Part shown: piece by piece, positions 5,944 to 62,761 of the stretch | Numbering within the stretch: position 1 is the stretch's first letter | How the letters are laid out: each line of letters starts with the position of its first letter | NCBI RefSeq assembly: GCF_030651595.1 | Contig: NZ_JAUSCH010000084.1 | Coordinates: forward strand, 1,338 to 65,337 | Direction of reading: 5' to 3' | Length of the DNA: 64,000 nt | DNA from: Candidatus Oleimmundimicrobium sp. | GTDB lineage: Bacteria > Actinomycetota > Aquicultoria > UBA3085 > Oleimmundimicrobiaceae | Notes under the pieces: generated by a model | The model's input: only the letters and a program-made list of their open reading frames with translations | What the model was told of the DNA's origin: nothing | Database searches by the model: none | Made by a program: the position numbers and the translations under genes

Positions 5944-8304
5944 TTAGCTCACCTTTCCTTCGTGTGCAAGAAACTCCCCAATGAACTTCTTTGAGTGTCC
6001 CTGAGTCTCTTCGAGTATTTCACCATAAGTTTTGCCGAAACCTTCGTGGTATTCAGCCGGATTATTTATTGCAAAGCTATAGTCTAAACCCATGAGCTCG
6101 AAGATTGTCTTTCGCATGGAGAATTCCTCATCTGAGTCATAACGGAGGATGGAATTTATGAATTCCACTCGGGCGTTGCTTTGAGGGAATTCTCCGAAGA
6201 CGTGCATGCCGTCTTGAATTTGGGTCTCTCTTAAGCGAGTTAAAACTTCGTGAGCCTGTTTGACGATTTCATCGAAGGACCCTTCTCCATGAATACCTTT
6301 TTCCTCGATCCCTATCTCTTTCTCCAATTTGGACGCCTTTATTTTGTCCACGATGAGGTGCTCCAGGGCATGAGCGCGAGCCGGATCGGTGATTTTAGCC
6401 TGGTTGTATTCGGCCAAATATCCTTCCAACTCCTTTAAGCTTTCGTAGAGACCGCTTTCGGTCATCACCGTCTGCATGTGGTCGATCAGCGTGGCGTAAC
6501 TTCTTCGCTTGGCGATGGTCCCCTCCGGCGGATTGTCGGCATTGTATATGTAGAGATGGGGAAGAGTACCGATTCCTATATCGGGATAACAGGAATCGGA
6601 AAGCCCTACCGCCTTTCCGGGCAAAAACTCCAAATTACCGTGGGTTCCCACGTGCACCACCACATCCGCTTCCCAGATCTCTTCCAGGTATCTGTAGGTG
6701 GCCAGATATTGATGGGTGGGAGGGCATTCGGGGTCGTGAAGTATCTTGCAGACCTGTCCGTCGCAGCGCGCCCCATAACACCCTCGTTTGGGTTGGACAC
6801 AGACCATAACATTTCCGTATTCTACCCCCGTGAGCACGATTTTTCCTTCATAAACCATGCCTTCACCGGGCGGCTCTCCCCAGGTGGAGGTCATTTTCTC
6901 TCTCACTTCTTCCGGCAACTTGTTCCACCACACCAGATATTTATCCAAGGAGAGGAGGGTGTGCGCCCCGCCCTTTGCAACTATCTCCTCTATGGGAGTC
7001 CATCTGAATTCGGAGATGGCTTTTCTCTCCATGATGGTCTCGATTAACTCTTTCCCGTTAGGGGGGTTTTTTTCGACCTTGTATCCTTGCTCTTTCATCT
7101 TTTGCATGATTTTAGCCACGCTTTCCAGAGTGTCCAAGTGTGCCCCACTGCCCACTGTGGCCTCCACGCTGGCGCAAGGGTTATTGTGCAGAACGAAGAC
7201 CACCTTCCGTTCTTGAGGCGGTTTTCTTCGGAGGCGCATCCATTTCTTGGCCCGCTCGACAATGTGATTGACCCGCTCCGGGATGGGCATATATTGTTCG
7301 AGAGTAACCCCGGTTTCCTCGTCGCTTGCTCTTGTTTGAACCCCGATTACCAGCGGCTCAATTATTCCATCAAATTCGGGCATGGCCACCGACCAGACTA
7401 TGTTTTCGGCAAGACCTTGAGCATCGGCTCTCCACTCCTCTTCGGTTTTGCGGTAAGAAACCAGGGGGTCAATGACCGGGACATCCAGTTTTTTAAGCAG
7501 TTCTACGCCTGCCTCCGCGCGGCCGATATCGGAACCTTCCGGCAGGGTTACCAGAAAGAAAGATTGCAAGTTGAGCAAGATATCGACGACCGATTTATCA
7601 TCTTTTGTCAGAAAAGCGGGAATTACCACATCATTTCCTTTGGCTCCCAGCTCATTTTCCTTAAAACCGTGAGAAAAGACAGGTATGATGTTGACATTCC
7701 TGTTTTCAAATTCACGAATAAGGGCATTCTCCACTTCGAGGTTTCCGTTTATCCAGTAAGAGCGATAAAAGAGGATACCCGCGGTGGGGTAGGAGGGGTC
7801 GAATTTCTTGTACCACTTAAGATAACTCTCAAGGTTGTCAAAGTGCGATGAGGCGTCGGGATGATAAATTCCCTGCCATGGCGTTTCTTGGAGCGGCTTA
7901 ACCTCCACCTCGATATCGAGAACCTCGCGGGCGATATAGGATAACAGGCTTTTCATGTTTTCCAGACCGTCGGTTACCAGATATTTATAGGCCGTGGCCA
8001 CTATCTCGGTGTTCACGGTGGAAAGACCCCAAAGAGACGGGTCGTGACCGAAAGAGACGGTGGGGGCGACCTTTCTAATTTTTTCGATTTCGGGGAGCAT
8101 CTCGCTCCAGACTTCGTTTGTGGTTGGATAAAGGAGGAGAACATCCGCCTCTTGTCGCAAATACTCCAGAAACTCTTCTCTTACCGGTTCATCCTCCAAG
8201 TCGCGCATGGAGCGGAGCTCAAGCTGTACGAAATCGAGCTCCTTGCTTGCTTGAACGAGTGTGGAAACGTGGCTTCCCCACATGATGGAGCCCACTTTTA
8301 TCAT
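5944..8304 (-). CDS. cobN: CobN/Mg-chelatase H family chelatase, N-terminal 786-aa segment
   Basis: CobN-like N-terminal region (MIKVGSIMWGSHVSTLVQASKELDFVQLELRS...). Ends at an in-frame TAA at 5944-5946, immediately followed by the continuing ORF. Confidence 0.7.
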   Translation of the reverse strand: MIKVGSIMWGSHVSTLVQASKELDFVQLELRSMRDLEDEPVREEFLEYLRQEADVLLLYPTTNEVWSEMLPEIEKIRKVAPTVSFGHDPSLWGLSTVNTEIVATAYKYLVTDGLENMKSLLSYIAREVLDIEVEVKPLQETPWQGIYHPDASSHFDNLESYLKWYKKFDPSYPTAGILFYRSYWINGNLEVENALIREFENRNVNIIPVFSHGFKENELGAKGNDVVIPAFLTKDDKSVVDILLNLQSFFLVTLPEGSDIGRAEAGVELLKKLDVPVIDPLVSYRKTEEEWRADAQGLAENIVWSVAMPEFDGIIEPLVIGVQTRASDEETGVTLEQYMPIPERVNHIVERAKKWMRLRRKPPQERKVVFVLHNNPCASVEATVGSGAHLDTLESVAKIMQKMKEQGYKVEKNPPNGKELIETIMERKAISEFRWTPIEEIVAKGGAHTLLSLDKYLVWWNKLPEEVREKMTSTWGEPPGEGMVYEGKIVLTGVEYGNVMVCVQPKRGCYGARCDGQVCKILHDPECPPTHQYLATYRYLEEIWEADVVVHVGTHGNLEFLPGKAVGLSDSCYPDIGIGTLPHLYIYNADNPPEGTIAKRRSYATLIDHMQTVMTESGLYESLKELEGYLAEYNQAKITDPARAHALEHLIVDKIKASKLEKEIGIEEKGIHGEGSFDEIVKQAHEVLTRLRETQIQDGMHVFGEFPQSNARVEFINSILRYDSDEEFSMRKTIFELMGLDYSFAINNPAEYHEGFGKTYGEILEETQGHSKKFIGEFLAHEGKVS

Positions 8305-10910: not shown

Positions 10911-12827
10911 CTATTCCATAATTTTTCTTAAACTGAATCCCAATCTTGTTCCCACCAAGGCACCCACCAAAGTGTATAAGAAGCCATCGATTACCGCGTA
11001 GGCATGAACGTACCAGGTCGTATAGTAAAGTCTGTATAAAAATATCGTGGTGCCGAAATTTATGTAAACGGAAAGGGTATCGGCCAACGCACAGGCAATT
11101 CCCACCGTGGCGAGAACACGCCATCTCTTTTCCGCGCCGATATCCGTCAGAATGCCGTTTTTCCTGGTCACGCCAAAGAGATATAGGGTGGTCTCGAGCA
11201 AAAAAATCAGAGATGCTTTCCACATGAGGGTGACGGGGCTAAAATTGCCGAGCACCACTCCCCCTAAAAGAAAACTTACACCCAAAGCGAGGGTCACCAC
11301 TCCCGGCCTGGGAATGAGGACCACAAGAGACATGATGAGAGCGTAAAGAATAATTTCATAAAAGATTCCTGTGATTAAGAAGCTAAAGGGGCCCAGGATG
11401 GCATGGAGGAAGTCCCAAAGGAGGGTGCCGGGCACATTGACCGTAATGAAAGTGGCCGTGCCAAAAAGAGCTATTATTACCAGCCATTTGGTCTTAAATC
11501 TTTTAAAAAATGCCTTTTGACAAATCATAAGATACCCAAGTCCCATCACTGTGATTAAAAAAGCTGCGAGAGTGATGAGCCCTGGGACCGGGTTTCTGGT
11601 GATGACATCGATCTCTTTTTGTTTTTTAGAGATGGCCTTGTCTGTCCCGAATATTTTAATTTCGCTCTCCAAAATATATTTACCCCCTAAGACCTCGGCC
11701 ACATCGACATAGATGGGAAAGGTTACTTTTTCTTCCGATTTCCCGGTCACCGAAACCACGGCGTAACTTACTCCCGTGCCGCCGCTTTTGGTGGAGGGAA
11801 CCCGAAAAGCCCGGGCTATCTTTTTTGTCTTGGGGTCCAGTACTTTGGATGTTACAAGAAAGACCACGTTATCTTGATTTTCATTTCTGACCGTGGTGGT
11901 GGCAAAAGCAAGAGGATGCTCGAGATAATCAATCTCTTTATCATCAGTTTTAAGTATTCTTTTTAAGAAATTGTTACCATCCACGCTTAAGGCCAGAGTA
12001 TTTTCCTTCTTACGAGAATCAAAATCTCCCTCGTCATCGGTGGGTACTTTGATTCCAGCTATATGAGCCAGGCCTTCAGCCTCTTTTAAAGAGATTACGC
12101 GCAGTTCTTTTTCTTTTTGGAACCGCGTGATTTTGTACTCGCCGTTTATCGTTTCCGCGACGGTGGCTTCTCCCCCGATTTTGTAAATGCCTGCAGCGAG
12201 AGTGGACGGCACTTCAAATTCCAGCAATTCGTTGAAGTTATCAAATTCTGTTACCAGCTTGCACTCGGCCGTGAGGATGTGACCTTCTTTTGTCTCTTTT
12301 GTCTCAAAAATTGAGGGTGTTCGAATCGGCTTGAACTCTTTAGGTAGAGTCAATTTAACGCTTGCTTGCAGGGGGTTGCCGGAGTAACTTTCTAAAAAAA
12401 CGGTGGCCGTGACCATGCTTCCTTTGACAACAAGGCTTCTCTCGTCGCTTTCCCCCGTCCCATAGGGGGCCTGAATAGAGAATTTAGCAACGGAGGTCGG
12501 CTTGGCTGGAGATTTTAACTCCTTTTCTATCATATCTCCGTTCTTGAGATTGATTTGGAATAAGTAAGACCGAGCCTCCTCCCAATCAAGAAAGAGGATG
12601 ACTTGTTTTGAGACTTCCGAATCGATGGTGGCCATGGTTATGAGCGAGCCATCCTGGTCAAAGACGCTCACCGAGGATATTGGGGTTTCCCTCGAAAGCT
12701 CAATTACGGCCCTATGGTGTCCAAACTCAATGGTTTTTATTTTTAAATCTTTCTCCTCTTTACCCCGGCAACCCGAAACCAAAAAGACAACCAGAGCTAA
12801 AATGAGGATTGTTTTGAGTTTTCTCAC
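10911..12827 (-). CDS. Large membrane lipoprotein: lipobox, about 400-aa extracytoplasmic domain, then a C-terminal block of about 6 TM helices (possible ECF substrate-capture/S-component-like protein)
   Basis: N-terminus MRKLKTILILALVVFLVSGC (lipobox). Beta-rich soluble domain. C-terminal hydrophobic helices (ITLAAFLITVMGLGYL...). Co-oriented and adjacent to EcfA/EcfT. Confidence 0.5.
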   Translation of the reverse strand: MRKLKTILILALVVFLVSGCRGKEEKDLKIKTIEFGHHRAVIELSRETPISSVSVFDQDGSLITMATIDSEVSKQVILFLDWEEARSYLFQINLKNGDMIEKELKSPAKPTSVAKFSIQAPYGTGESDERSLVVKGSMVTATVFLESYSGNPLQASVKLTLPKEFKPIRTPSIFETKETKEGHILTAECKLVTEFDNFNELLEFEVPSTLAAGIYKIGGEATVAETINGEYKITRFQKEKELRVISLKEAEGLAHIAGIKVPTDDEGDFDSRKKENTLALSVDGNNFLKRILKTDDKEIDYLEHPLAFATTTVRNENQDNVVFLVTSKVLDPKTKKIARAFRVPSTKSGGTGVSYAVVSVTGKSEEKVTFPIYVDVAEVLGGKYILESEIKIFGTDKAISKKQKEIDVITRNPVPGLITLAAFLITVMGLGYLMICQKAFFKRFKTKWLVIIALFGTATFITVNVPGTLLWDFLHAILGPFSFLITGIFYEIILYALIMSLVVLIPRPGVVTLALGVSFLLGGVVLGNFSPVTLMWKASLIFLLETTLYLFGVTRKNGILTDIGAEKRWRVLATVGIACALADTLSVYINFGTTIFLYRLYYTTWYVHAYAVIDGFLYTLVGALVGTRLGFSLRKIME

Positions 12828-26675: not shown

Positions 26676-27176
26676 TTGAAGGGCATCTTTGTGGTTGGAA
26701 GGAAATATATGAGAACAAGTGTAGATGTTCACAATGTTCTTAGCGAGAAGAATATTCCTTACGAAATCATTCCTATTTCTTGCTCAATATCATCTGCCGG
26801 GAGGATGGCGGAGGTTTTAAACCTTTCTCCCTTCGAAGTTGTTAAGTCCATTCTTTTTATGACCGATGGTGAGCCAATATTGGCAATTTTATCTAGCGAA
26901 AAAAAGATTTCTTACAAGAAACTGAAAAAGGCCACTCTTATTTCAAACTTACGGCTTGCTACTCTTCAAGAACTTATAGATATTACAGGTTACATGCCTG
27001 GCGCGACTCCACCTGTTGCTCACAAAGTCTCGATACGCACGGTTATAGATGATGATTTAAAAACGCAAAATGTCATTTATACTAGCGCGGGCGAACTGAA
27101 CGCTGTTCTTAAAATGAAGGTTTTTGATTTAAAAAAAATAACATGTGCCAAGGTTTATGATTTAACAAAAGATTAG
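26676..27176 (+). CDS. YbaK/ProX-like aminoacyl-tRNA deacylase domain protein
   Basis: 166 aa with YbaK-like topology (my reading; no diagnostic motif checked). Confidence 0.55.
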   Translation: MKGIFVVGRKYMRTSVDVHNVLSEKNIPYEIIPISCSISSAGRMAEVLNLSPFEVVKSILFMTDGEPILAILSSEKKISYKKLKKATLISNLRLATLQELIDITGYMPGATPPVAHKVSIRTVIDDDLKTQNVIYTSAGELNAVLKMKVFDLKKITCAKVYDLTKD

Positions 27177-27274
27177 GGTTTTGGAAGTTTCAAGGGAACT
27201 AATATTTTTTTGAACTCGTCATAGCAATATGATGTTATGGTTTATGTAGAAAGCAAAAACATTGAGGATATATT

Positions 27275-29053
27275 ATGGAACCCATAAAAATTATAGAGAG
27301 CTATCCTGACAAATGTAAAGAGTGTTATAGCTGTATTCGCTCATGTCCCGTTAAGAGTATAAAGATAAGCAATGGTTGCGTTGAGGTTCTGGACGAAACA
27401 TGTATATATTGTGGTGAATGCGTAATAGTTTGTTCTCAAGGAGCGTTGGTATATAAAGACAGTATTCAACGCGCATATCGTATTGCCAACAAAAAAAAGA
27501 AAGCTGTTGCAATTTTATCTCCCGAATGCCTGGCCGCTTTCCCCTCAATTGGTTCAACTGAAATTGCTGCCGGGCTCATAAAACTTGGCTTTGATGCCAT
27601 TGAAGGGACTATCTTGGGGGAAGAACTTGTGGCCGCGGAATATAAGAAGATTTTGAGTCAAGCTGAAGATTTTCCAATGATTCGCTCCACGTGTCCTGTT
27701 GTTACAAACTTAATAGAAAAATATTTTCCTAATCTTATCCCATATCTTGCCCCTGTTGTGTCGCCAATGATTGCCCAAGGCCGTCTTTGTAAAGAGTTAT
27801 ATGAAGGGGCTTATACAGTCTATGTAACCTCGTGTGTTGCTCAAAAGGCCGAAGCAATGGATGAACCCATCGCAGACGCTATTGATACAGTGATAACATT
27901 CTCCGAGCTCAAGAAGATGTTTGAAGATGCGGAGATTGATCTTAAATTATTATCCGAGGCGAAATTGGAGCCGGTTGAGCGCGTTTTGCGGGTGGATTCC
28001 TTGCCAGGGGGATTGCCTCGACAATTTATGGCTAAAATGAGCACAATCAACCGTAACCTTAAGACAGCAAGGGGTGTGCAGGAAACGCATGCTTTAGCGG
28101 AGGCTTTAAACGAGGGTGAGATTCGAGCAAATTTTGTGGATGTTTTAAATTGTAAGGGTTGTATTGATGGGCCGGTGATGAGGAATGGTTTAGCTAACGG
28201 GAGAAGCTTATATCTTTTAAAGAATCAAATACAGCAAAGTTATAGAAGAGAGAGAAAAAAGATGGGGTGGGTTAACCCATCTGAGATACTCCCTAATTTA
28301 CCAAAAATAAATTTGAGGAGAACTTTTACCGATAAAACAATTCCCTTGGTTTCTCCCGCAAAAGAAGAACTGAAAAAATTACTGGCGGAGGCGGATATTT
28401 TTACTCCTGAAGATGAGCTTAACTGTGGTGCTTGTGGATACAAAACATGTGTTAAAAATGCAAGCGCCATATATCAAGGGGTCACTAACTGGAGCACATG
28501 TTTCCCGTATCAAAAAAAACTCATGGTTCAAATAAAAGAAAACGCGGAAAAAATATCCATGGTTGACGCAGTTACCGGGTTGCTCAATCATTATGGATTT
28601 ACTCGTACTCTTAAAAAAGAAGCAAAAAGAGCTCATCGGTATGGCTCGGCACTTTCAATCATAGTTCTTGACATCGATCGGTTTAAATTAATAAACGATA
28701 CCTATGGTCATGTAAGAGGAGATGAGGTTCTAAAATCTGTAGCAAAAATATTATGTAGCAATTTGCGTGAAACGGATTTTGTTGCTCGTCAAGGAGGAGA
28801 TGAATTTACAGTAATTTTGCCACAGATTGAAAAAACGGAAGCTTTCGCGGTTGCGGAAAAGCTACGTTGCAAAACCGAAAATTTTAATTTTATATTTGAG
28901 AAAAAACGCATTCCTATAACCTTAAGTCTCGGAGTTGCTTCTCTTCCCCAAGGGGAAAAAGATCCCTTGTTTTTATTTGATATGGCGGATAAAGCCATGT
29001 ACCAAGCTAAAAAAACCGGACGCAACAAAACATGTATCGCTAAAGATATTTAG
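27275..29053 (+). CDS. Sensory [FeFe]-hydrogenase-like (HydS-type) protein fused to a GGDEF diguanylate cyclase domain
   Basis: Two 4Fe-4S motifs (CKECYSCIRSCP, CIYCGECVIVCS). H-cluster motifs STCPV, TSCVAQKAE and NCKGCIDGP. Cx2Cx4Cx16C (CGACGYKTC-16-C). GGDEF with I-site RETD and A-site GGDEF. Confidence 0.75.
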   Translation: MEPIKIIESYPDKCKECYSCIRSCPVKSIKISNGCVEVLDETCIYCGECVIVCSQGALVYKDSIQRAYRIANKKKKAVAILSPECLAAFPSIGSTEIAAGLIKLGFDAIEGTILGEELVAAEYKKILSQAEDFPMIRSTCPVVTNLIEKYFPNLIPYLAPVVSPMIAQGRLCKELYEGAYTVYVTSCVAQKAEAMDEPIADAIDTVITFSELKKMFEDAEIDLKLLSEAKLEPVERVLRVDSLPGGLPRQFMAKMSTINRNLKTARGVQETHALAEALNEGEIRANFVDVLNCKGCIDGPVMRNGLANGRSLYLLKNQIQQSYRRERKKMGWVNPSEILPNLPKINLRRTFTDKTIPLVSPAKEELKKLLAEADIFTPEDELNCGACGYKTCVKNASAIYQGVTNWSTCFPYQKKLMVQIKENAEKISMVDAVTGLLNHYGFTRTLKKEAKRAHRYGSALSIIVLDIDRFKLINDTYGHVRGDEVLKSVAKILCSNLRETDFVARQGGDEFTVILPQIEKTEAFAVAEKLRCKTENFNFIFEKKRIPITLSLGVASLPQGEKDPLFLFDMADKAMYQAKKTGRNKTCIAKDI

Positions 29054-29196: not shown

Positions 29197-29664
29197 GTGG
29201 ATTTTTTGAAAACTGAGATTGTTGTATCTTCCGGTGGTGTAATTTTTAGAAAAATTAATAGTAGAGTAGAAATTGCAATTACCTCAAGAAGTGATAAAGA
29301 GGGAGATGTTTGGTGTTTGCCCAAGGGTTTGGTTGAAAAAGGCGAAAAGTTTACAGATACTGCTATTCGGGAAATTAAAGAAGAAACGGGCCTAATGGGT
29401 AAAGTTATCGCGAAGCTCGGCGAAATAGAGTATTGGTTTTATTGGGGGGCGCCTAAGACGAGGTATCATAAGTTTGTTCATTTTTATCTGATGGAATACG
29501 TTAACGGAGATATTTGTGAGCATGATTTTGAGGTTAAAGAAGTTAAATGGGCTTCAATAAAAGATGCAATTTCAATGTTGTCTTACAAGAGCGAAATTGA
29601 GATAATCAAAAAGGCCGAGATTATTTTAACTAAAAAAAGGAATGCTAAGAACATTTTTTCTTAG
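29197..29664 (+). CDS. NUDIX hydrolase
   Basis: Nudix box GLVEKGEKFTDTAIREIKEETG. Confidence 0.85.
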   Translation: MDFLKTEIVVSSGGVIFRKINSRVEIAITSRSDKEGDVWCLPKGLVEKGEKFTDTAIREIKEETGLMGKVIAKLGEIEYWFYWGAPKTRYHKFVHFYLMEYVNGDICEHDFEVKEVKWASIKDAISMLSYKSEIEIIKKAEIILTKKRNAKNIFS

Positions 29665-30901: not shown

Positions 30902-32227
30902 ATGATTGTTAAACACATAAAACACTTTGAAACAAATAAATTAAAACATCAGGTTGTGGCGATAAGTATATTTGTAGGCTTTGTTGTCATGTCTTTTTGT
31001 TGGGGGCTATCTTATTTCGAGGGAGTATTTGAGAAATGGAGCCCGATTATACTAGGGTCTTTTGTGGCATTTATGACATCGGTGATTTTAAAGGTTTGGG
31101 CGGTAAAAGGAGAATTTGAGCATTCCAAGGCCGTATATTCACATCAGATTTTTGAGATAGCAAGCGCTACTTTGCCATATCTTCGAACTGGCCTAAATGA
31201 AAAATCAGCTGGTGAAGTTGCAAGAATATTGATAAAAAATATCGACGCAATGGCGGTCGCTCTTACAAATTTAACAACAATATTGGCTTTCTCCGGGGCA
31301 GGAGAGGATCACCATCAGGCAGGTGGATTAATTTTAACAGAGGCAACTAAAGAGGTTTTGAAATACAACGAAGCGAGGGTGTTAAAGAGCAAAAAAGAAA
31401 TAGGCTGTCCTGTTTCCAATTGCCCGTTAAGCGCGGCCATAGCTGTCCCTTTGGAATTGAGAAATAAAGTAGCCGGTGCTTTAAAATTCTATTATTCTGA
31501 TAAAGAAGAATTAACTGAAAGTAGAATAACGTTTACCGAAGGTTTAGCTAAATTGTTGAGCACTCAACTGGAACTCTCAGAAATTGACAGACAAGAAGGG
31601 CTTGCTTGTAAAGCTGAACTCAAAGCATTGCAAGCTCAAATAAACCCTCATTTTCTTTTTAATACCTTAAATACTATTGCCAGCTTGTGTAGAACTGACT
31701 CAAAAAAGGCCAGAAAGCTCATAATCCAATTTGCTGATTTTTTTAGAAAATCGCTTGAACGAGATTCGGATTTAGTTACTTTGGAGGAGGAAATAGACTA
31801 TCTCAACACATACTTGCTCTTAGAAGAAGCTCGGTTTGGAAAGAATCTCCAAATATTAGAAGATGTAGATAAAGAAGTTTTAGGAATTAAAATACCATTT
31901 CTAATTATTCAACCTCTGGTTGAAAACGCAATTAAGCATGGAGGGACATTATGGGGACATATTAAAGTAAAAATAGCCGCAAAAATTTACAATTCAGAAG
32001 TAATAATTCAAGTGTGCGATAATGGAAAAGGTATTAGTGAGAAAAACCTGAGCAAAATTTTATCTCCGGGGTTTGGTAAAGGAACAGGGATAGGTTTAAG
32101 TAATGTAAATGAAAGGTTAAAAAGTCTTTATGGCGAAGAATATGCATTGGAAGTAACGAGTACAAAAAACAAAGAGACCAAGGTTGTAATACATATTCCT
32201 ATAACAGGAGAGAACGATGAAGATTAA
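30902..32227 (+). CDS. Sensor histidine kinase, LytS/YehU family (TM plus GAF-like plus His_kinase/HATPase)
   Basis: NPHFLFNTLN H-box. ATPase G-boxes near the C-terminus. N-terminal TM helices. Confidence 0.8.
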   Translation: MIVKHIKHFETNKLKHQVVAISIFVGFVVMSFCWGLSYFEGVFEKWSPIILGSFVAFMTSVILKVWAVKGEFEHSKAVYSHQIFEIASATLPYLRTGLNEKSAGEVARILIKNIDAMAVALTNLTTILAFSGAGEDHHQAGGLILTEATKEVLKYNEARVLKSKKEIGCPVSNCPLSAAIAVPLELRNKVAGALKFYYSDKEELTESRITFTEGLAKLLSTQLELSEIDRQEGLACKAELKALQAQINPHFLFNTLNTIASLCRTDSKKARKLIIQFADFFRKSLERDSDLVTLEEEIDYLNTYLLLEEARFGKNLQILEDVDKEVLGIKIPFLIIQPLVENAIKHGGTLWGHIKVKIAAKIYNSEVIIQVCDNGKGISEKNLSKILSPGFGKGTGIGLSNVNERLKSLYGEEYALEVTSTKNKETKVVIHIPITGENDED

Positions 32228-32960
32228 AGCATTAATAGTTGACGATGAAGCTCCAGCTCGCTCAGAACTTAGATATATGTTGCAGGAAACAAGCGATGTC
32301 GAAGTGGTTGGCGAAGCGGCAAATGCTGATGAGGCAATTAAACTTATAAAAGCCCTAAATTATGACGTAGTTTTTGTGGATATTCAGATGCAGGGATTAA
32401 CCGGTCTGCAATTGGCTGAAATTACTAAGGAGCTTTCATTACCACCGGCAGTTGTCTTTGTTACCGCTTATGGAGAATATGCGGTAAAAGCATTTGAGCT
32501 TAATGCTCTCGATTATTTGGTTAAACCATTTGAGGAAAAACGCCTTGTCCAAACTATAGAGAAAGTCTCTCGATATAAAGCAAGCCTCGAAGGACTCGAG
32601 CATAAAAAGAAAATCAAAAGCGGGAAGGCAGAATTAGATCTCTTGCCTGTGCAAGAGAATGATAAAACAATTTTGATTTCGATTGATAATATAGTTTATA
32701 TCCATGCCCAAAACGAGCGAATCTTTGTTCATGCGACAGGCGGTGTTTATTCTACTTCTTTTAATTTAAAAGAGTTGGAATCTCGTTTTTCAAACAGAGG
32801 ATTTTTTAGAACTCATCGAAGTTACCTTGTTAACATCTATAAAGCTAAAGAAATTATACCGATGTTTCATGGAAGTTTTATCTTGCGCCTTTCGGGAGAA
32901 ATTAAAGTTCCGGTTAGTCGAAGAAAAGCTTCGGAGTTAAAATCAATTTTAGGTATGTAA
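32217..32960 (+). CDS. LytTR-family response regulator
   Basis: Receiver domain (IVDDE, phospho-acceptor VDIQM) plus a LytTR DNA-binding domain. Confidence 0.85.
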   Translation: MKIKALIVDDEAPARSELRYMLQETSDVEVVGEAANADEAIKLIKALNYDVVFVDIQMQGLTGLQLAEITKELSLPPAVVFVTAYGEYAVKAFELNALDYLVKPFEEKRLVQTIEKVSRYKASLEGLEHKKKIKSGKAELDLLPVQENDKTILISIDNIVYIHAQNERIFVHATGGVYSTSFNLKELESRFSNRGFFRTHRSYLVNIYKAKEIIPMFHGSFILRLSGEIKVPVSRRKASELKSILGM

Positions 32961-39393: not shown

Positions 39394-39909
39394 ATGTCTA
39401 ATTGCGTTTGCGGGGCCAAAAAAGAAGAGAAAAAAATTCAAGTAAACGTAAATGACGTTCGTAAATTATTGAAAAAATATGAAGAGAAAAAGGGAGTGCT
39501 TGTGCATGCCCTTCAAGACGTTCAAAAAGAATTTGGTTTTTTGCCTGAGGAAGCGCTCAAAGTCATTGCTGAAGTAATGGACTTATCTTTGGCTCACGTT
39601 TATGGAGTTGCCTCGTTTTACGCGCATTTTTATTTTACTCCGCGAGGCAAAAATATAATTAAAGTTTGCACGGGCACGGCCTGTCATGTTCGCGGTTCGA
39701 AGGTGATTCTTGAGGGATTAGAAGAAGAACTTGGCATAAAAGCTGGCGAGACGACCGATGACTTTGAGTTCACGCTTGAAACAGTAAGTTGTGTGGGCTG
39801 TTGCGCGCTTGCTCCCGTTGTGGTGGTAAATGAAGAAGTTTCAAGAGAGAAAAATTCGAAGAAGATAATCGCAATTCTTAAAAATAAAAAGGAAGAGAAT
39901 GATGAGTAA
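39394..39909 (+). CDS. NuoE/HndA-like thioredoxin-fold [2Fe-2S] subunit
   Basis: CTGTACH...C cluster motifs. 24-kDa family. Confidence 0.85.
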   Translation: MSNCVCGAKKEEKKIQVNVNDVRKLLKKYEEKKGVLVHALQDVQKEFGFLPEEALKVIAEVMDLSLAHVYGVASFYAHFYFTPRGKNIIKVCTGTACHVRGSKVILEGLEEELGIKAGETTDDFEFTLETVSCVGCCALAPVVVVNEEVSREKNSKKIIAILKNKKEENDE

Positions 39910-41797
39910 GTTTAAAAGCTCTAAAGAGCTAAGTGTTTTGCGAAAAAAAATATGTGACGAAAGAGCAAAACAAAAAAAGACAATAGTTCGAGTTTGCAAC
40001 GGGACTGGTTGTCGTGCTTCTGGCGCGCAGAAGGTTGTTGAAGCTTTTAAAAAAGAGGCTACCAAGCAAGGCGTTGATTTTGAGATAAGGCCAACGGGCT
40101 GCCAGGGTTTATGTGAAAAAGGCCCTCTTGTAATTGTAGAGCCCTTAGATGTTTTTTATCAAAAGGTTGATCCGTTTGATGCGGCAAAGATAATTGATCT
40201 TACTATAAATCGCGGCAAAGTTATTGATCGGCTGCAAGTGGTTGATCCTGTTACGGGAGAGCTTGCTGTTAAAGAAGAGGAAATTTCCTTCTATGGCAAA
40301 CAGCAACGCGTAGTTTTAAGAAATTGTGGCCACATTGATCCCACTAACATAGAGGATTATATAGCAATTGGGGGCTATGAGGCGTTGGTGAAAATTTTAA
40401 ATGATATGACGCCGGAAGAAGTGATAGAAGAGGTTAAGAAATCTAATTTAAGAGGTCGAGGTGGGGCAGGTTTTCCTACGGGAAGAAAGTGGGAAGGCGG
40501 TCGAAGAACAAAGAGTGACGTGAAATATATTGTTTGCAATGGTGACGAAGGGGACCCGGGAGCCTTTATGGATAGAAGTGTTTTAGAGGGTGACCCCCAC
40601 TCTGTTATTGAAGGCATGATAATAGGGGCTTATGCTCTGGGCAATTGTAAAGAGGGATTTATATATGTAAGACAAGAATACCCTTTGGCGGTCGAGAACT
40701 TAACAGTGGCGATTAATCAAGCGAGGGAGCTTGGTCTTTTGGGCGAGAATATACTTGGGAGCGGTTTTGATTTTGATTTGGAAATAAAACGTGGAGCAGG
40801 AGCTTTTATTTGTGGAGAGTCGACAGCACTTATGTTTTCTATTGAGGGCAAAAGAGGGATGCCTCGAACTACTCCTCCTCGTTCTGTGGGAAAAGGACTA
40901 TGGGATAAGCCCACAGTGTTAAATAATGTTGAAACCTTCGCTAATATTCCTCCAATAATAATTAAGGGAGCAGACTGGTTTCCCTCTATAGGCACAAAGG
41001 GCTCTCCGGGAACCAAAATATTTGCTCTGACCGGAAAAGTGAAAAACACTGGTCTTATTGAGGTTCCTATGGGAATAACTATTCGGGAAATTGTCTATGA
41101 TATAGGTGGCGGTATTTTAGGCGACAAAGAGTTTAAAGCTGTTCAGACAGGAGGACCGAGTGGCGGTTGTCTTCCAAAAGAATATCTGGATTTACCCGTT
41201 GATTTTGATTCATTAACAGAAGTTGGAGCCATGATGGGCTCCGGCGGGCTTGTTGTGATGGATGAGTCCAATTGCATGGTGGAAATTGCAAGGTATTTTC
41301 TCTCTTTTACTCAGGTGGAATCTTGCGGGAAGTGCCCGCCTTGCAGAATTGGAACATATGAGATGCTTGAGATTTTAAACAGAATCGTTGAAGGGAAAGG
41401 CGAAGAGGGTGACATAGAGCGTTTGGAAAGCATCGGCAAACATATTCAGAAAACTGCTCTATGTGGTCTAGGTAAGAGCGCGCCCAATCCTGTGCTTTCA
41501 ACCATTAAATATTTTAGGGATGAGTATGAAGCCCACATAAGGGATAAATATTGTCCGGCTGGGCAATGTACAGCACTTGGCCATTATCAAATAAACGAGG
41601 AGGATTGTCTCCTTTGCGGTCTATGTAAAGAGGTGTGTGCTTATGACGCGATTACAGAAGAGCGAAACAGGTTCTATATCGATTTATCATACTGTCAAAA
41701 GTGCGGAGCTTGTATAGGGGTTTGTCCGACCGGTTGTGTTGTGAGACAGTTTGAACGAAAATCCACTCCTACTGGTAAGCAGGAGGTGGCTACATGA
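39899..41797 (+). CDS. NuoF/HndC-like NAD(P)H-binding FMN/Fe-S subunit with an N-terminal 2Fe-2S domain and two C-terminal 4Fe-4S domains
   Basis: GRGGAGFPTG; CGKCPPC N3 motif; C-terminal CLLCGLCKEVC and CQKCGACIGVC. Confidence 0.85.
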   Translation: MMSKFKSSKELSVLRKKICDERAKQKKTIVRVCNGTGCRASGAQKVVEAFKKEATKQGVDFEIRPTGCQGLCEKGPLVIVEPLDVFYQKVDPFDAAKIIDLTINRGKVIDRLQVVDPVTGELAVKEEEISFYGKQQRVVLRNCGHIDPTNIEDYIAIGGYEALVKILNDMTPEEVIEEVKKSNLRGRGGAGFPTGRKWEGGRRTKSDVKYIVCNGDEGDPGAFMDRSVLEGDPHSVIEGMIIGAYALGNCKEGFIYVRQEYPLAVENLTVAINQARELGLLGENILGSGFDFDLEIKRGAGAFICGESTALMFSIEGKRGMPRTTPPRSVGKGLWDKPTVLNNVETFANIPPIIIKGADWFPSIGTKGSPGTKIFALTGKVKNTGLIEVPMGITIREIVYDIGGGILGDKEFKAVQTGGPSGGCLPKEYLDLPVDFDSLTEVGAMMGSGGLVVMDESNCMVEIARYFLSFTQVESCGKCPPCRIGTYEMLEILNRIVEGKGEEGDIERLESIGKHIQKTALCGLGKSAPNPVLSTIKYFRDEYEAHIRDKYCPAGQCTALGHYQINEEDCLLCGLCKEVCAYDAITEERNRFYIDLSYCQKCGACIGVCPTGCVVRQFERKSTPTGKQEVAT

Positions 41798-42315
41798 GCA
41801 GTGATGGTTGCCCGGTCTTGATAGTACTTGAATTTCTAAAGGGATTTGCCCGAGATAAGATGTGTGGCAAGTGTCTGCCCTGCATGTTTGGAACAGCGCA
41901 GATGGTCGATGTTTTAGAGAGGATTACAAATGGAAAAGGAGAAGAAGAAGATATGGCTCTGCTTGATGAAATATCTTCTTCTATCGTGGATACTGCTCGA
42001 TGCAAACTGGGTAAGGACGCGGCTACTTTTGTAAAGGACTCATTGTCCGCATCTAAAAGTGAGTATGAAGAGCATATAAAGGACAAGTATTGCGCTCATA
42101 AATCTTGTGAGATTATTGTGAACTACCAGATAAACCCAGAGAAGTGTACGATGTGTGGAGCTTGCAAAGAGGTTTGCTCCAAAGATGCAATCATCGGTGA
42201 GAAGATGGTTTCTTATCTTTCGGACAACAAACCTTATTATATTAAAAATAAAAAGTGCACCAAATGTGACGAGTGTTTGGCCGTATGTGAAGCCGGTGCT
42301 ATAGAAATTGTTTAA
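41794..42315 (+). CDS. Small Fe-S protein paralogous to the C-terminal third of the preceding NuoF-like subunit (N3-like CGKCLPC plus two 4Fe-4S ferredoxin motifs)
   Basis: Colinear similarity to NuoF-like residues about 460-630: CGKCLPCMFGT vs CGKCPPCRIGT; EYEEHIKDKYC vs EYEAHIRDKYC. Confidence 0.6.
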   Translation: MSSDGCPVLIVLEFLKGFARDKMCGKCLPCMFGTAQMVDVLERITNGKGEEEDMALLDEISSSIVDTARCKLGKDAATFVKDSLSASKSEYEEHIKDKYCAHKSCEIIVNYQINPEKCTMCGACKEVCSKDAIIGEKMVSYLSDNKPYYIKNKKCTKCDECLAVCEAGAIEIV

Positions 42316-42332
42316 CTAAAGGAGGAGAAAAA

Positions 42333-44882
42333 TTGAGTGAGCAAGTCACTGTAACGATAAATGGAAAAGAAGTAAAGGTTCCCGAAGGAGTTTTCATCAT
42401 TCAGGCGGCCAAGATGGCGGGGATAGATATACCCCATCTCTGTTATTGTGAATGCCTGCCCAGCACGGGGTCGTGCAGAGTTTGTTTGGTTGAAGTTGAG
42501 GGGATAAAGGGGTTGGTTGCCTCATGTGCTCGAAAAGTTAAGGATGGAATGGTGATTGCCACTGATACAGAAAAGATCCGGGAAGCCAGACGTTTTGTTC
42601 TTGAATTAATACTTTCAAATCATCCCGGCGATTGCATGAGTTGCGATAAAAACGGTGCTTGTGAGCTTCAGAAATACGCATACGAGCTTGGCATTGAGAA
42701 AACAAGTTTCTTGATGAAAGATCCCGGTTACGAGATAGATAAAAGCAATCCTTTTATAGAGAGGAATTACAATCTCTGTATTTTGTGCGGACGGTGTGTG
42801 GGAATCTGCAAAACGCAGGGGGCAGATATCATAGATTTTATAAAGCGAGGCATGATTACCAAGGTGGCAACCCCGTTGGATAAGCCCTTGCAGGAATCGG
42901 GCTGTGATTTTTGTGGAAGCTGTCTCGCGGTTTGTCCTGTTGGCGCGTTACTCGAGGTCGACAGGCGTTTTCGTGGGCGAGAATGGGAAATGAAAGAGAC
43001 AAGAACAGTCTGCTCTTATTGTGGCTGTGGTTGTGACCTTGTATTTGGCATCGTGGATGGGCAGATTATGAGAGCAACCGGCGAGGGCCTGGGAGATTTT
43101 CTCTGCGCGAGAGGCAGATTTGGATGGGATTTTGTAGAAAGCCCTAAGCGAATTACAAAACCTTTGATTAAAAAAGACGGGGTTTTAACCGAAAGCACCT
43201 ACGAAGAGGCCTTTGGGTTTGTAGCAGAACGTCTTCTTGATATAAAGAAAGCCCATGGGGCAGATAGCGTTGGCGGCTTTATCGGCGCGGGGAACACAAA
43301 CGAGGTTGCTTACTTATTCCAAAAGTTTTTAAGGGCCGGTATCGGGACGAACAACATCGATAGCTCCGCCAGACTTCTCGGTTTCCCCGCCTTAGTTGAT
43401 TTATATGAAGCGTTGGGAGACGGAGCTGTTGTCTCAATGAAAGATGTTGAGGAAGCCGATGCTCTCTTGCTCGTAAACGCGGATGTTACGGTGGCCTATC
43501 CTCGTGTGGGTGTAGCCGTAAAGAGAGCGCTTTCAAGCGGAGCGAAGTTGGTAACCATAGATGCCAGAAGAACGAAAATTTCCGAGAAAGCCGATATATA
43601 TATTCAGTCAAAGGTCGGCTCCGACGAGTTTGTCTTAAGTGGGCTTTTGAAAGAGTTACTTGACGGTAAAATTTACGATGAAGAATTCGCCAAGAAGTGC
43701 GAGAAATTTGAAGACTTAAAGAAATCTCTTGGCAAATTGAAGATGGAAACGGTAGAAAGAGAGTCGGGAATTTCTAAAGATGTTTTGAAGGAAGCCGCAA
43801 AACTTTATAGCGAAGGGAAGAAGGCGGTCATAATCTTTGGGGCCGAAACGGCAAGCCCTCAAACCATGGAATTGATTGCCGATATCTCACTTCTAACAGG
43901 TAGAACTAGAGCGAGCGTTCTCCCGTGCCTCCTCTCTTCTAATCTGCGAGGCACGGTTTACATGGGAGCTTTGGCCGAATTTTATCCGGGTGTAAGAAAA
44001 ATAGATGAAGCCAGGAACGATTTTGAGAAGACTTGGGGAGTTAAACTTCCTAAAAAGGCCGGGCTTTCTATTAAGGAAATGTTAGACGGAATGGGCTCAT
44101 CTATTCTTGGGATGTATATAGTTGGAGCGGATCCGGTTACTCAATTTCCTAACTCTTCCAGTGTGGCCAAGTCGCTCTCATCCTTAGACTTCCTGGTGGT
44201 CCAAGATACTTTTTTGACGGAAACCGCAAAGTTGGCCGATGTTGTGTTGCCAGGGATAACTTTAGCCGAGAGCAATGGAACCATTGTTAATATGGAATAT
44301 CGAACGAAAGAGGTTAGGGCAGTTATTGAACCTTTGGCCGAAACTGATTGGAAGACGGTAACCGCTTTGTCTAAAAGAATGAATTATACTATGGGCTACT
44401 CTTCTGAAAAGGAGATTGCCAAAGAAATAAAGTCTCTGGTTTTCGTTCCAAAGAAAATCGAAAGAGATACATATAGCTTTATCTTAGTGGAACCCAAGGT
44501 TTCTGGTGAAGAGCCCGATAAAAAATATCCTTATACTTTAATTGTTGGAGAAACAACATTTGGGTTTTATGATGGAGTTAGAACAAAAATTTCCAAACTA
44601 TCTGAACTTGAGCCAAATATGGGAGATTATGTTATTTTTAACTCAGACGATGCTGCGTTTTTGGGGCTTGAGGATGGTTGCAAGGTCACGGTTAAATCGA
44701 GACGGGGCAAGGTTACAACCTCGGCAAGGATACTTGATTTCTTACCCAAGGGGATGTTTTTTATGCCTAGTTGTCACCATAAACAAGGCGTTCTAGCGAG
44801 CGATAGCATAGATTTAAAATTAAAGAGCCCGCAAGATCAGTTAATTGCTGTAAGTGTTTCAAAAGAAGGAGTCGCCAAATGA
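42333..44882 (+). CDS. NuoG/FdhA-like Fe-S and molybdopterin-fold subunit lacking the catalytic Sec/Cys-His (non-catalytic formate dehydrogenase paralog)
   Basis: 2Fe-2S, His-ligated 4Fe-4S (HPGDCMSCDKNGAC), two 4Fe-4S and CSYCGCGC clusters. NNIDSSARLLGF replaces [11 protein letters not shown] of the true FdhA at 62773. Confidence 0.75.
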   Translation: MSEQVTVTINGKEVKVPEGVFIIQAAKMAGIDIPHLCYCECLPSTGSCRVCLVEVEGIKGLVASCARKVKDGMVIATDTEKIREARRFVLELILSNHPGDCMSCDKNGACELQKYAYELGIEKTSFLMKDPGYEIDKSNPFIERNYNLCILCGRCVGICKTQGADIIDFIKRGMITKVATPLDKPLQESGCDFCGSCLAVCPVGALLEVDRRFRGREWEMKETRTVCSYCGCGCDLVFGIVDGQIMRATGEGLGDFLCARGRFGWDFVESPKRITKPLIKKDGVLTESTYEEAFGFVAERLLDIKKAHGADSVGGFIGAGNTNEVAYLFQKFLRAGIGTNNIDSSARLLGFPALVDLYEALGDGAVVSMKDVEEADALLLVNADVTVAYPRVGVAVKRALSSGAKLVTIDARRTKISEKADIYIQSKVGSDEFVLSGLLKELLDGKIYDEEFAKKCEKFEDLKKSLGKLKMETVERESGISKDVLKEAAKLYSEGKKAVIIFGAETASPQTMELIADISLLTGRTRASVLPCLLSSNLRGTVYMGALAEFYPGVRKIDEARNDFEKTWGVKLPKKAGLSIKEMLDGMGSSILGMYIVGADPVTQFPNSSSVAKSLSSLDFLVVQDTFLTETAKLADVVLPGITLAESNGTIVNMEYRTKEVRAVIEPLAETDWKTVTALSKRMNYTMGYSSEKEIAKEIKSLVFVPKKIERDTYSFILVEPKVSGEEPDKKYPYTLIVGETTFGFYDGVRTKISKLSELEPNMGDYVIFNSDDAAFLGLEDGCKVTVKSRRGKVTTSARILDFLPKGMFFMPSCHHKQGVLASDSIDLKLKSPQDQLIAVSVSKEGVAK

Positions 44883-59710: not shown

Positions 59711-59725
59711 AAACAGGAGGTTTAG

Positions 59726-62311: not shown

Positions 62312-62332
62312 GCTTTTTGAAAGGAGTTTCCC

Positions 62333-62761
62333 ATGATTGTTAAAGATATTATGACTAAGGGAGCTGCATCAATTTATCCGGATGCTACCGCTAAAGAAGC
62401 AGCAAACGTAATGAAGAAAAAGAAAGTAGGCTCGCTTTTGGTCGTCGATGACGAAGAACTTCTTGGGATAATTACCGACAGAATGATAGCAACTGAGGTT
62501 GTTGCCGTTGGTTTGGATATCAAGAAGACCAAAGTGAGAGATTTCATGCATGAGAGTGTTGTCTCAGTTTCTCCGGAAATGGAGGCGGCAAAGGCCGCTA
62601 AATTGCTTGAGGAGTTGGAGATAAGGTATTTGCCGGTAACGGTCAACGGAAAAGTTGTCGGGATGCTTTCTCTCTCTGATATAGCGAATTTTATCAGGGA
62701 TTTTATCAGCTGCATATTAATTGAGGTTGGAGCCCGAGTTACAAAAAGAAAAGAAGAGTAA
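62333..62761 (+). CDS. CBS domain pair protein
   Basis: 142 aa with two CBS motifs. Confidence 0.7.
   Translation: MIVKDIMTKGAASIYPDATAKEAANVMKKKKVGSLLVVDDEELLGIITDRMIATEVVAVGLDIKKTKVRDFMHESVVSVSPEMEAAKAAKLLEELEIRYLPVTVNGKVVGMLSLSDIANFIRDFISCILIEVGARVTKRKEE

Follow-up and report, generated by a model that had tools for sequence, protein, structure and literature searches.

Sensory [FeFe]-hydrogenases and a GGDEF-fused relative

The sensory [FeFe]-hydrogenases are sorted in HydDB into kinase-linked (C1), chemotactic (C2, MCP) and phosphatase-linked (C3, PAS) subtypes, and the role of HydS-type proteins as sensors is still called putative (PMC8924675; HydDB). For the M2e and M2f sensory groups, a pair of N-terminal [4Fe-4S] clusters and a C-terminal Cx2Cx4Cx16C motif have been described (PMC8163306). 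Here we analyze a 592-amino-acid protein that has both of these features, followed by a GGDEF (diguanylate cyclase) domain for the synthesis of cyclic di-GMP (c-di-GMP). It is encoded within a 64,000-nucleotide stretch of DNA (hereafter, the window; contig NZ_JAUSCH010000084.1) from Candidatus Oleimmundimicrobium sp., a genus of the class Ca. Aquicultoria, Actinomycetota. The protein is identical to NCBI MDO8886244.1 / WP_308752405.1, which is labeled 'diguanylate cyclase'; since the fusion is thus already public, it is the interpretation, not the sequence, that is new. No published description of an [FeFe]-hydrogenase–GGDEF fusion was found in full-text literature searches. HydDB has no [FeFe] subtype with this output; its one diguanylate-cyclase-linked type is [NiFe] group 2c (PMC5037454).

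The kinase-linked group C1 proteins (for example, P0109 at locus L009) share with the window protein the order of two [4Fe-4S] clusters, H-domain, Cx2Cx4Cx16C motif and output domain, the C-x2-C spacing in the L3 motif of the H-domain, and, in the numbering of the [FeFe]-hydrogenase CpI that we use for reference positions throughout, an Asp at E495 and a Leu at M497. They differ in their HisKA/HATPase output, in retaining Ser232 and Lys358, and in usually being located inside a NuoE-NuoF-HydA operon. TmHydS of Thermotoga maritima (group C / M2f) and its PAS/SpoIIE-linked relatives (HydDB C3) have the same cluster complement and have likewise lost C299, but TmHydS carries a PAS domain, Ala (Ala131) at C299, Gly at M353 and Ser at M497, and has been shown experimentally to bind the H-cluster. 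The PAS-type sequences that we sampled also keep the C-x3-C spacing in L3 as well as S232 and K358; at the corresponding places (output domain, C299, M353, M497, L3 spacing, S232 and K358), the window protein has GGDEF, Thr, Thr, Leu, C-x2-C, Glu and Gln. TamHydS of Thermoanaerobacter mathranii (group D / M2e) resembles the window protein in having Ser191 at M353 (Thr185 in the window protein) and Leu291 at M497 (PMC11803613), and in its four [4Fe-4S] clusters and Cx2Cx4Cx16C tail (PMC8163306), whereas it lacks an output domain, carries Ala137 at the C299 position, accepts [2Fe]adt and has its gene beside that of a bifurcating hydrogenase.

Two further systems are similar in logic. For the [NiFe] group 2c hydrogenases, 'diguanylate cyclase-linked (putative)', the coupling of H2 sensing to c-di-GMP has been proposed (PMC5037454), but these enzymes belong to an unrelated metalloenzyme superfamily and are therefore analogs, not relatives; their role is listed as undetermined in HydDB. 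The globin-coupled DosC/DgcO proteins consist of a cofactor-based sensor, a helix and a GGDEF domain with an I-site, and the GGDEF domain of the window protein can be aligned with theirs (PDB 4zve family; E = 8e-31), although their sensor is a heme-globin and not an iron-sulfur chain in a hydrogenase fold. By analogy, the window protein probably works like a cofactor-based sensor cyclase.

A four-cluster sensor joined to a diguanylate cyclase

The open reading frame (ORF) is complete, extends from 27275 to 29053 on the plus strand and ends with a TAG stop codon. Reading of the sequence places a Shine-Dalgarno GAGG (27264–27267, +) 7 nt 5' of the ATG at 27275; promoter-like matches nearby are weak. 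The encoded protein consists of a ferredoxin-like 2x[4Fe-4S] domain, an H-domain, a Cx2Cx4Cx16C motif, a helix and a GGDEF domain. The ferredoxin-like domain (residues 11–58; 27305–27448, +) is matched by Pfam Fer4_10/Fer4, with Fer4_10 covering residues 11–53, and contains two CxxCxxCxxxC motifs (C14/17/20/24 and C43/46/49/53), all eight cysteines of which are invariant or at least 90 per cent conserved among the 45 family members on which residue conservation was scored. The H-domain (residues 75–300; 27497–28174, +) is matched along the entire Pfam profile PF02906 Fe_hyd_lg_C (positions 1–245 of 245; E = 6e-44; 150.9 bits against a cut-off of 22.1). The Cx2Cx4Cx16C accessory-cluster motif (residues 384–409, CGACGYKTCVKNASAIYQGVTNWSTC; 28424–28501, +) is formed by C384, C387, C392 and C409, which are all invariant, and lies within a match to Pfam PF04060 FeS (residues 382–410; E = 4e-6).

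An AlphaFold2 model built from the 45 family members has a mean predicted local distance difference test (pLDDT) score of 91.2 and a predicted template modeling (pTM) score of 0.75. When its first ~440 residues were searched with Foldseek, the [FeFe]-hydrogenases DdH, HydABC HydA, CbA5H and CpI were recovered (E-values from 1e-16 to 2e-19; probability 1.00). At the level of the model, the presence of the H-domain fold is therefore confirmed, and the domain order is real. The nearest NCBIfam hydrogenase model is FeFe_hydrog_B1 (monomeric group B1), which the protein matches with 162 bits against a cut-off of 450, followed by FeFe_hydrog_A with 86 bits against 406.

The GGDEF domain (residues 429–585; 28559–29029, +) is recognized by Pfam PF00990 (E = 1e-45; 155.8 bits against a cut-off of 23.8), by TIGR00254 (164.1 bits against 37.4) and by comparison with PDB entry 3ign (E = 5e-35), and the last 165 residues of the model retrieve GGDEF domains in Foldseek (TM score of 0.94 to 3ign). 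Its A-site (G507-F511; 28793–28807, +) retains the GGDEF sequence, with G508 and D509 invariant and G507, E510 and F511 at least 90 per cent conserved. The I-site RETD (R498-D501; 28766–28777, +), in which R498 and D501 are invariant, ends five residues before the GG pair; the RxxD I-site of PleD likewise stands exactly five residues before its GG. Seven other residues (D466, D468, N474, D475, D483, K579 and R583), which we take to be the equivalents of the metal- and GTP-binding residues of PleD, are invariant or nearly so. Judged by these residues, the domain looks catalytically competent and possesses an inhibitory site.

Between C409 and the GGDEF domain, DSSP assigns a linker helix to residues 410–428 of the model (28502–28558, +), a layout similar to that of the phytochrome-linked cyclase 5llw, a Foldseek match. 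In each of the 15 clade loci measured, exactly 97 residues separate the last cluster cysteine from the GGDEF motif, despite protein identities of 35–45 per cent. In relatives of the window protein, the Cx2Cx4Cx16C module precedes HisKA, PAS, sigma54-AAA and all other outputs, and because the same motif stands before every output type, it may be a common transmitter, which we infer is coupled to the cyclase by a rigid helix.

Sixteen invariant or near-invariant cysteines thus appear to be arranged for four [4Fe-4S] clusters: two in the ferredoxin-like domain, the H-site cubane (C140, C187, C293 and C296) and the C-terminal Cx2Cx4Cx16C cluster. Together with the model, this makes a four-cluster iron-sulfur sensor with a hydrogenase fold, predicted to drive a product-inhibited diguanylate cyclase, a secure description of the protein. 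The same order of domains had been proposed in a sequence-only reading of this DNA, made without database searches, and much of that reading holds. Pfam bears out the 592-residue ORF with its two N-terminal 4Fe-4S motifs, H-domain and GGDEF domain, the Fe_hyd_lg_C, Fer4 and GGDEF profiles that it named all match, and the structural model agrees with it. The motifs that it quoted are found at their positions (STCPV at 138–142, TSCVAQKAE at 185–193 and NCKGCIDGP at 292–300), the Cx2Cx4Cx16C spacing at 384–409 is exact, and the A-site (507–511) and I-site (498–501) are intact.

Near the 3' end of the gene, a terminator-like hairpin with a T-run is located at 28949–28969 (+), inside the ORF and 84 nt 5' of the stop codon. 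No comparable hairpin was seen 3' of the stop codon.

Most GGDEF fusions form a clade of their own

The architecture is not limited to the window. As to homologs with the same domain order, for which the sequence-only reading suggested a search, a large protein collection contains approximately 80 clusters of this architecture, at 30–72 per cent identity, mostly from metagenome-assembled genomes (MAGs) of Actinomycetota (Aquicultor, Coriobacteriia, Rubrobacteridae), with a few labeled Firmicutes. The collection further contains fusions of this sensor module to HisKA/HATPase, PAS and sigma54-AAA outputs. A search of GTDB species genomes that used the C-terminal cysteine motif (the shared Cx2Cx4C) as its key found more than 549 relatives in many phyla and returned mostly histidine kinase (HK)- and PAS-type sensors; the best 80 of the >549 include no Oleimmundimicrobium genome.

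To place the protein among its relatives, we use a neighbor-joining tree of 196 sensor modules, reconstructed without bootstrap and without a reference set of groups A–G. In this tree, the window protein falls in a clade of 83 proteins, all of them with a GGDEF domain, intact or degenerate; the sister group of this clade comprises 104 HK, sigma54 and PAS fusions. An architecture that is found in every member of such a clade is not a chance fusion. Over the sensor module, the window protein is ~36 per cent identical to HK-fused sensors. The GGDEF clade therefore appears to be the sister of group C1, set apart by its new output and by a characteristic signature in the active site.

Several GGDEF-bearing proteins deviate from the main pattern. 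P0034 and P0043 are nested in the HK clade, lack the Glu/Arg/Thr triad described below, keep Ser232 and Lys-Lys, and look like independent domain swaps. We considered P0043 (L091, 10001–11731) as a possible GGDEF fusion with a canonical pocket beside a hydrogenase and rejected it, as no hydrogenase is near it; its neighbors include glutamine synthetase, glutamate synthase, thioredoxin and Rrf2-IscS-IscU genes. Within the GGDEF clade, six members (P0016, P0066, P0069, P0078, P0068 and P0044) have degenerate A-sites (GEDNF, TGDRF, DGDKF, GGDEY); the RxxD I-site, the triad and the eight H-site and C-terminal cysteines are all retained, and these members may serve to bind c-di-GMP or as scaffolds and not as cyclases. 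A divergent GGDEF subclade (P0095, P0103, P0108, P0114 and P0118) is without the L2 Lys and Glu (e.g. CLADGHAD), and in P0108 a Trp replaces the Cys at the C499 position. This subclade probably represents a further step of pocket decay in the family.

The pocket of the H-domain is remodeled

Residues were mapped onto CpI by HMMER alignment and by an alignment of 120 sequences. The four cubane ligands are C140, C187, C293 and C296 (CpI C300, C355, C499 and C503), and all are invariant in the family. The surrounding motifs diverge from those of catalytic enzymes. In place of the L1 sequence TSCCP with its proton-relay Cys299, the window protein has R137-S138-T139-C140-P141 (27683–27697, +), in which R137 corresponds to T297, T139 to C299 and C140 to C300. 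Its L2 equivalent, TSCVAQKAE (residues 185–193; 27827–27853, +), departs from MPCxxKxxE: T185 corresponds to M353, C187 to C355, Q190 to K358, K191 to K359 and E193 to E361, so that Gln is found at Cys+3, the Lys is moved to Cys+4 and only the Glu is retained. The L3 equivalent, DVLNCKGCIDGP (28139–28174, +), differs from ExMxCxxGCxxGGGQP in its C-x2-C spacing, being one residue shorter between its two cysteines than CpI, and in carrying Leu291 for Met497 (D289 = E495, L291 = M497, C293 = C499, C296 = C503). The L2 and L3 motifs named in the sequence-only reading are therefore correctly positioned, but L2 is without its motif Lys and L3 has C-x2-C and not C-x3-C. The short L3 spacing is common to all HK, sigma54 and GGDEF fusions in the 120-sequence alignment, and only the PAS-only TmHydS-like proteins keep C-x3-C. 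Upstream of L1, residues S82-P83-E84-C85 (27518–27529, +) are aligned with A230-P231-S232-V233 of CpI (S82, P83 and E84 with A230, P231 and S232 in the HMMER alignment), which puts Glu84 in place of Ser232.

Some of these changes are typical of sensory enzymes. The sensory signature consists of the loss of C299, a residue at M353 that is small or bears a hydroxyl, and variability at M497, and T139, T185 and L291 of the window protein conform to it. Gly, Ser or Thr are usual at M353, and at C299 the sensory enzymes in HydDB have ~43 per cent Ala, 17 per cent Cys, 10 per cent Pro and 10 per cent Ser (PMC10055695). The Thr at this position had been taken in the sequence-only reading as usual for HydS; it is not among the residues listed, and TmHydS has Ala (PMC10055695). 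It is instead the hallmark of the GGDEF clade, where Thr is present in 73/76 members of the main clade.

Other changes are not typical. Sensory [FeFe]-hydrogenases conserve the residues that hydrogen-bond the [2Fe] cofactor (Chongdar et al., PMC10055695), yet in the window protein two of these are replaced, S232 by Glu84 and K358 by Gln190. At S232, Glu occurs in 74/76 GGDEF-clade sequences, as opposed to Ser in 34/37 HK-type and 7/7 PAS-type sensors, and at the preceding P231 position the clade has Pro, Ser or Thr where the same 34/37 and 7/7 proportions of the other sensors have Pro. In CpI, Lys358 binds the (distal) cyanide (CN) ligand, and S232 and K358 contact the two CN ligands. Lys is retained at this position in 35/37 HK-type and 7/7 PAS-type sensors, whereas the GGDEF set (n = 76) has Arg in 31, Ala in 18, Lys in 11, Gln in 6, Asp in 3 and Val in 2 (main-clade set, n = 77: Arg 32, Ala 18, Lys 10, Gln 7, Asp 3, Val 2 and others), Gln being the residue of the window protein in both. 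Arg is found at T297 in 74/76 of the main clade, and the combination of Glu, Arg and Thr at the S232, T297 and C299 positions occurs in 74/75 complete main-clade sequences. Because of the Glu at S232 and the unconserved K358 position, the GGDEF clade is an exception to the published rule.

The HydS-type identity proposed in the sequence-only reading is accordingly upheld in part. The protein has the 2x[4Fe-4S] and Cx2Cx4Cx16C modules that define the M2e/M2f sensory group, has lost C299 and is placed by the neighbor-joining tree as sister to the HK, sigma54 and PAS sensors, but the [2Fe] contacts are not kept and the output is GGDEF in place of the C1, C2 and C3 signaling partners. As far as the alignments and loci can tell, the GGDEF clade departs from the described sensory group in two features: the conserved [2Fe] contacts and the linkage to catalytic hydrogenase operons.

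Linkage to hydrogenase genes and the signal sensed

Neighbor counts cover all loci fetched, comprising 16 GGDEF-clade loci and 72 with HK, PAS or other outputs. A gene for an H-domain or NuoF-type protein is located within 10 kb of 58/72 other-output genes and of 0/16 GGDEF-clade genes (Fisher's exact test; P-value = 1e-9), and a LytS-type kinase gene within 10 kb of 13/16 GGDEF-clade genes and of 0/72 others (P-value = 5e-13), where the 0/16 and 13/16 are not independent events, given the common ancestry and synteny of the GGDEF-clade loci. The genes for HK- and PAS-fused sensors are located within NuoE-NuoF-HydA operons (e.g. L009 and L010), and no HydB/C-type partners adjoin the GGDEF-clade fusion genes. 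The 64-kb window contains no hydE, hydF, hydG or catalytic HydA gene, and neither the window nor the protein has a [NiFe] domain. A nearby HydEFG set, sought on the suggestion of the sequence-only reading, did not turn up in the window or within the 10-kb flanks of the 16 clade loci, which is as far as this absence extends. Relatives of Ca. Oleimmundimicrobium are presumably included in the three Wood-Ljungdahl Actinobacteria clades covered by a published genome survey. That survey reports a recognized [FeFe]-hydrogenase with HydEFG in one genome only (Merino et al. 2020, PMC7325909), and its supplements contain no hydEFG table.

The remodeled contact residues, the lost hydrogenase linkage, the absence of nearby maturases and the scarcity of [FeFe]-hydrogenases in related lineages lead us to favor, with about an even chance of being right, the reading that the window protein is a redox sensor with several clusters and no [2Fe] that controls the synthesis of c-di-GMP. 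It would be a soluble iron-sulfur protein that governs its own diguanylate cyclase domain, descended from putative sensory [FeFe]-hydrogenases and having most likely lost the [2Fe] subsite, and with it specific H2 sensing. Low-potential carriers, most plausibly reduced ferredoxin in a host with the Wood-Ljungdahl pathway, would exchange electrons with the surface clusters of the ferredoxin-like domain. The charge state of the cluster chain, read at the C-terminal cluster, may then alter the packing or register of the linker helix in a homodimer; dimerization belongs to the general biochemistry of GGDEF enzymes and is assumed here. Such a change would toggle the paired GGDEF domains between productive and unproductive arrangements, so that c-di-GMP synthesis tracks the reducing power of the cell, with output limited by product inhibition through RETD. 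Glu84, Arg137 and Thr139 would fill the former [2Fe] pocket and tune or shield the cubane. Eukaryotic Nar1/NARF (IOP1) proteins, which keep the H-domain fold and the cubane cysteines without [2Fe] or HydEFG, offer a precedent for a plain iron-sulfur H-domain. The likeness is one of general description: these are cytosolic iron-sulfur assembly factors that have no signaling output and retain the L2 Lys.

Several observations weigh against this reading, beginning with the shared ancestry behind the linkage counts and the limited reach of the maturase search. The Glu/Arg/Thr triad is under very strong selection, as would also be expected of a re-wired functional [2Fe] pocket, in which Arg137 would replace Lys358 as the CN partner and Thr139/Glu84 would form a new proton relay. 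Lys at Cys+4 is almost invariant in the main GGDEF clade, and Arg or Lys still occupies the K358 position in 42/77 members. TmHydS and TamHydS bind a normal H-cluster despite their changes at C299, M353 and M497 (PMC8163306, PMC11803613, PMC10055695), so motif divergence alone does not exclude an H-cluster. Nor is the lack of gene linkage unexpected of a protein whose output is a diffusible messenger and not the control of one operon. The electron donor, the dimeric state and the redox dependence of activity are all predictions.

The main rival is an H2-sensing c-di-GMP synthase, as proposed in the sequence-only reading, of which the domain order and the GGDEF domain stand and the H2 part is weakened by the loss of S232 and K358, the linkage counts and the missing window genes. 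HydEFG encoded elsewhere in the genome would install [2Fe] on the C140/C187/C293/C296 cubane, slow H2 oxidation would reduce the cluster chain, and the reduced C-terminal cluster would switch the GGDEF dimer, so that c-di-GMP reports the partial pressure of H2; Arg137 would stand in for Lys358 at the CN ligand and Thr139/Glu84 for Cys299 as the proton exit. The whole H-domain is present, none of its four ligands varies, the bridging-Cys position being one of them, the protein is close kin to the accepted putative H2 sensors (~36 per cent identity to HK-fused proteins, and sister in the tree), the C299 loss and the Thr at M353 fit the sensory signature (PMC10055695), and the Leu at M497 matches L291 of the H-cluster-binding TamHydS (PMC11803613). 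An invariant basic residue at 137, exactly where conservation of K358 is lost, resembles a relocation of charge; the triad is strongly selected and characterized sensors tolerate large second-sphere changes; a sensor that makes a messenger need not adjoin a hydrogenase operon; and the host's Wood-Ljungdahl metabolism is one to which H2 and formate are relevant. Conversely, a Glu at S232 would abut an anionic CN ligand if the pocket is laid out as in CpI, and Ala, Asp and Val are all found at K358 in clade members. Hydrogenase and maturase genes are absent from the surroundings of the 16 loci and from the window, the surveyed Wood-Ljungdahl clades are largely without [FeFe]-hydrogenases or HydEFG (PMC7325909), retention of three maturases for the sake of one sensor would be unusual, and the NCBIfam hydrogenase models score far under their cut-offs (162 versus 450 bits for the best). 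We regard a genuine H2 sensor as possible but rather doubtful. The same tentative standing applies to the corollary that the GGDEF clade, linked to diguanylate cyclase, adds a fourth and hitherto undescribed type to the sensory [FeFe]-hydrogenases, in which the second coordination sphere is re-wired and the H-cluster kept.

Sensors of the FNR and NreB type act by cluster loss, and the window protein could similarly respond to O2, NO or reactive oxygen species: one or more clusters, such as the C-terminal one or the cubane exposed at the former H-site, would be destroyed or converted, the linker irreversibly changed and c-di-GMP switched, as part of a stress or biofilm response of a strict anaerobe. 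Four Cys-ligated clusters beside an output helix, hosts that are strict anaerobes by their Wood-Ljungdahl genes, a locus uncoupled from hydrogenase genes and the unusual O2 chemistry at the TamHydS H-site (PMC8163306) are compatible with such an oxidant sensor. Sequence does not distinguish it from the redox-sensor reading; every cluster has full four-Cys ligation with no evidently labile site, and the ferredoxin-like domain suggests reversible electron exchange and not cluster loss, so we consider it improbable. Least probable by far is that the protein is a catalytic hydrogenase with an incidental GGDEF domain, or that its sensor half has decayed and left a constitutive cyclase. The H-domain fold is intact, and the degenerate GGDEF motifs TGDRF, GEDNF and DGDKF in a few members show that drift can occur. 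Catalysis is nevertheless disfavored by the loss of C299 and the proton path, the altered [2Fe] contacts and the absence of adjoining HydB/C-type partners, and decay by the invariance of sixteen cysteines and of the triad in more than 75 proteins at 35–45 per cent identity; with the fixed linker length, this invariance points to strong purifying selection on the sensor half.

Genomic neighborhood

The gene is flanked by a YbaK/tRNA_edit-domain gene (26676–27176, +), a recurring upstream neighbor (L002, L005, L006, L011 and L012), and by a NUDIX hydrolase gene (29197–29664, +), a recurring downstream neighbor (L005, L006 and L011), both identified by Pfam. Chromate transporter genes follow, and then genes for a LytS-type histidine kinase (GAF_3, His_kinase, HATPase) and a LytTR response regulator (30902–32960, +; Pfam). 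The complete Wood-Ljungdahl cluster (FTHFS, RACo, CooC, FolD, AcsD, CODH, ACS, AcsC, AcsE, HdrABC-MvhD and MetVF) begins with FTHFS at 33113, which is 4,060 bp past the stop codon of the fusion gene, in agreement with the ~4 kb, with LytS/LytTR in between, given in the sequence-only reading. The order YbaK, fusion gene, NUDIX, LytS/LytTR and FTHFS-RACo-CooC recurs in Ca. Aquicultor and in another MAG, at 42–43 per cent protein identity. Coriobacteriia-like genomes are without Wood-Ljungdahl genes at the locus and still have LytS/LytTR a few genes downstream, and LytS/LytTR is part of a conserved neighborhood of the fusion gene, an observation on gene order and not on function. No c-di-GMP riboswitch or any other Rfam family was detected in the window.

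Inside the Wood-Ljungdahl cluster there are two sets of NuoE-like and NuoF-like genes (39394–44882 and 59195–63831, +), each adjoined by molybdopterin subunits of the formate dehydrogenase type. Each set is followed by a Fer2_4/NADH-G_4Fe-4S/molybdopterin subunit, the second copy of which runs past the window end. The layout is HydABC-like, with a formate dehydrogenase module in place of the H-domain, and points to formate instead of H2 as the coupled carrier at these sets.

At the Coriobacteriia-like loci L007 (11855–14245) and L008 (11798–14112), the hydrogenase–GGDEF gene is followed within ~10 bp by a radical-SAM gene. It was considered as a candidate HydE/G and rejected, being of the AmmeMemoRadiSam type (TIGR04337, 297–306 bits). 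The next gene encodes a protein of 412–430 amino acids without a Pfam or NCBIfam match, and a QueT gene is located just upstream. Between the POR and aspartate kinase genes, L002 (3006–5291), L008 (2236–4785) and L007 (1975–3070) carry a HAMP-GAF-HD-GYP (HD_5) gene, the product of which is likely, by its domains, a c-di-GMP phosphodiesterase. The window has no such gene, and positions 22556 and 22792 are only 235 bp apart.

Preceding the fusion gene, the window encodes cobaltochelatase, cobalt transport, dnaX, recR, 2-oxoacid:ferredoxin oxidoreductase, aspartate kinase, semialdehyde dehydrogenase, a CDF transporter and a LOG-like protein. The CobN cobaltochelatase (4384–8304, –) is split into two abutting ORFs, of which 5944–8304 covers positions 1–656 and 4384–5943 positions 676–1089 of the CobN profile; the halves are parted only by TAA then ATG on the minus strand, and a GGAAAGG lies immediately upstream. 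Either two genuine, translationally coupled genes or a single gene interrupted by a recent nonsense mutation could account for the arrangement. Two ORFs have no Pfam match at E ≤ 1e-6: 10911–12827 (–, 638 amino acids), among the cobalt transport and chelatase genes, and 56873–57934 (+, 353 amino acids), between HdrB and the second CooC in the Wood-Ljungdahl cluster. The first ~14 kb of the window carry minus-strand genes with a G+C content of 0.47–0.50 and negative GC skew, and from ~14–16 kb on the genes are on the plus strand, with a G+C content of 0.38–0.45 and strongly positive GC skew. The switch falls just before dnaX/recR and could mark a strand-bias turning point or a distinct cobalt-chelatase island.

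Implications for sensory hydrogenases and their hosts

The modularity of HydS-type sensors is already known, and it is the remodeling of the pocket that is the genuine surprise. The GGDEF clade offers a natural comparison, in which the scaffold of a canonical sensor is retained and the [2Fe]-contact residues are swapped for a Glu/Arg/Thr triad. Since the output is the conversion of GTP to c-di-GMP, redox- or H2-dependent signaling by HydS-type proteins could be tested in one tube. Hydrogenase surveys filtered by the L1–L3 motifs and annotations that read 'diguanylate cyclase' only both miss this family.

Should the protein be an H2 sensor, Wood-Ljungdahl Actinomycetota that are otherwise without catalytic [FeFe]-hydrogenases would use it to translate the partial pressure of H2 directly into c-di-GMP. 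Among sensory hydrogenases, it would be the first whose output is an enzyme activity that is easy to assay, and it would serve as a natural experiment on how far an H-cluster pocket can be rebuilt. An H-cluster that tolerates a radically different pocket would matter for hydrogenase engineering. Alternatively, bacteria, like eukaryotes with Nar1, may have recycled the H-domain as a plain iron-sulfur redox sensor. In little-known, acetogen-like Actinomycetota of the subsurface, the protein would then tie the state of cellular reducing power to the control of lifestyle by c-di-GMP.

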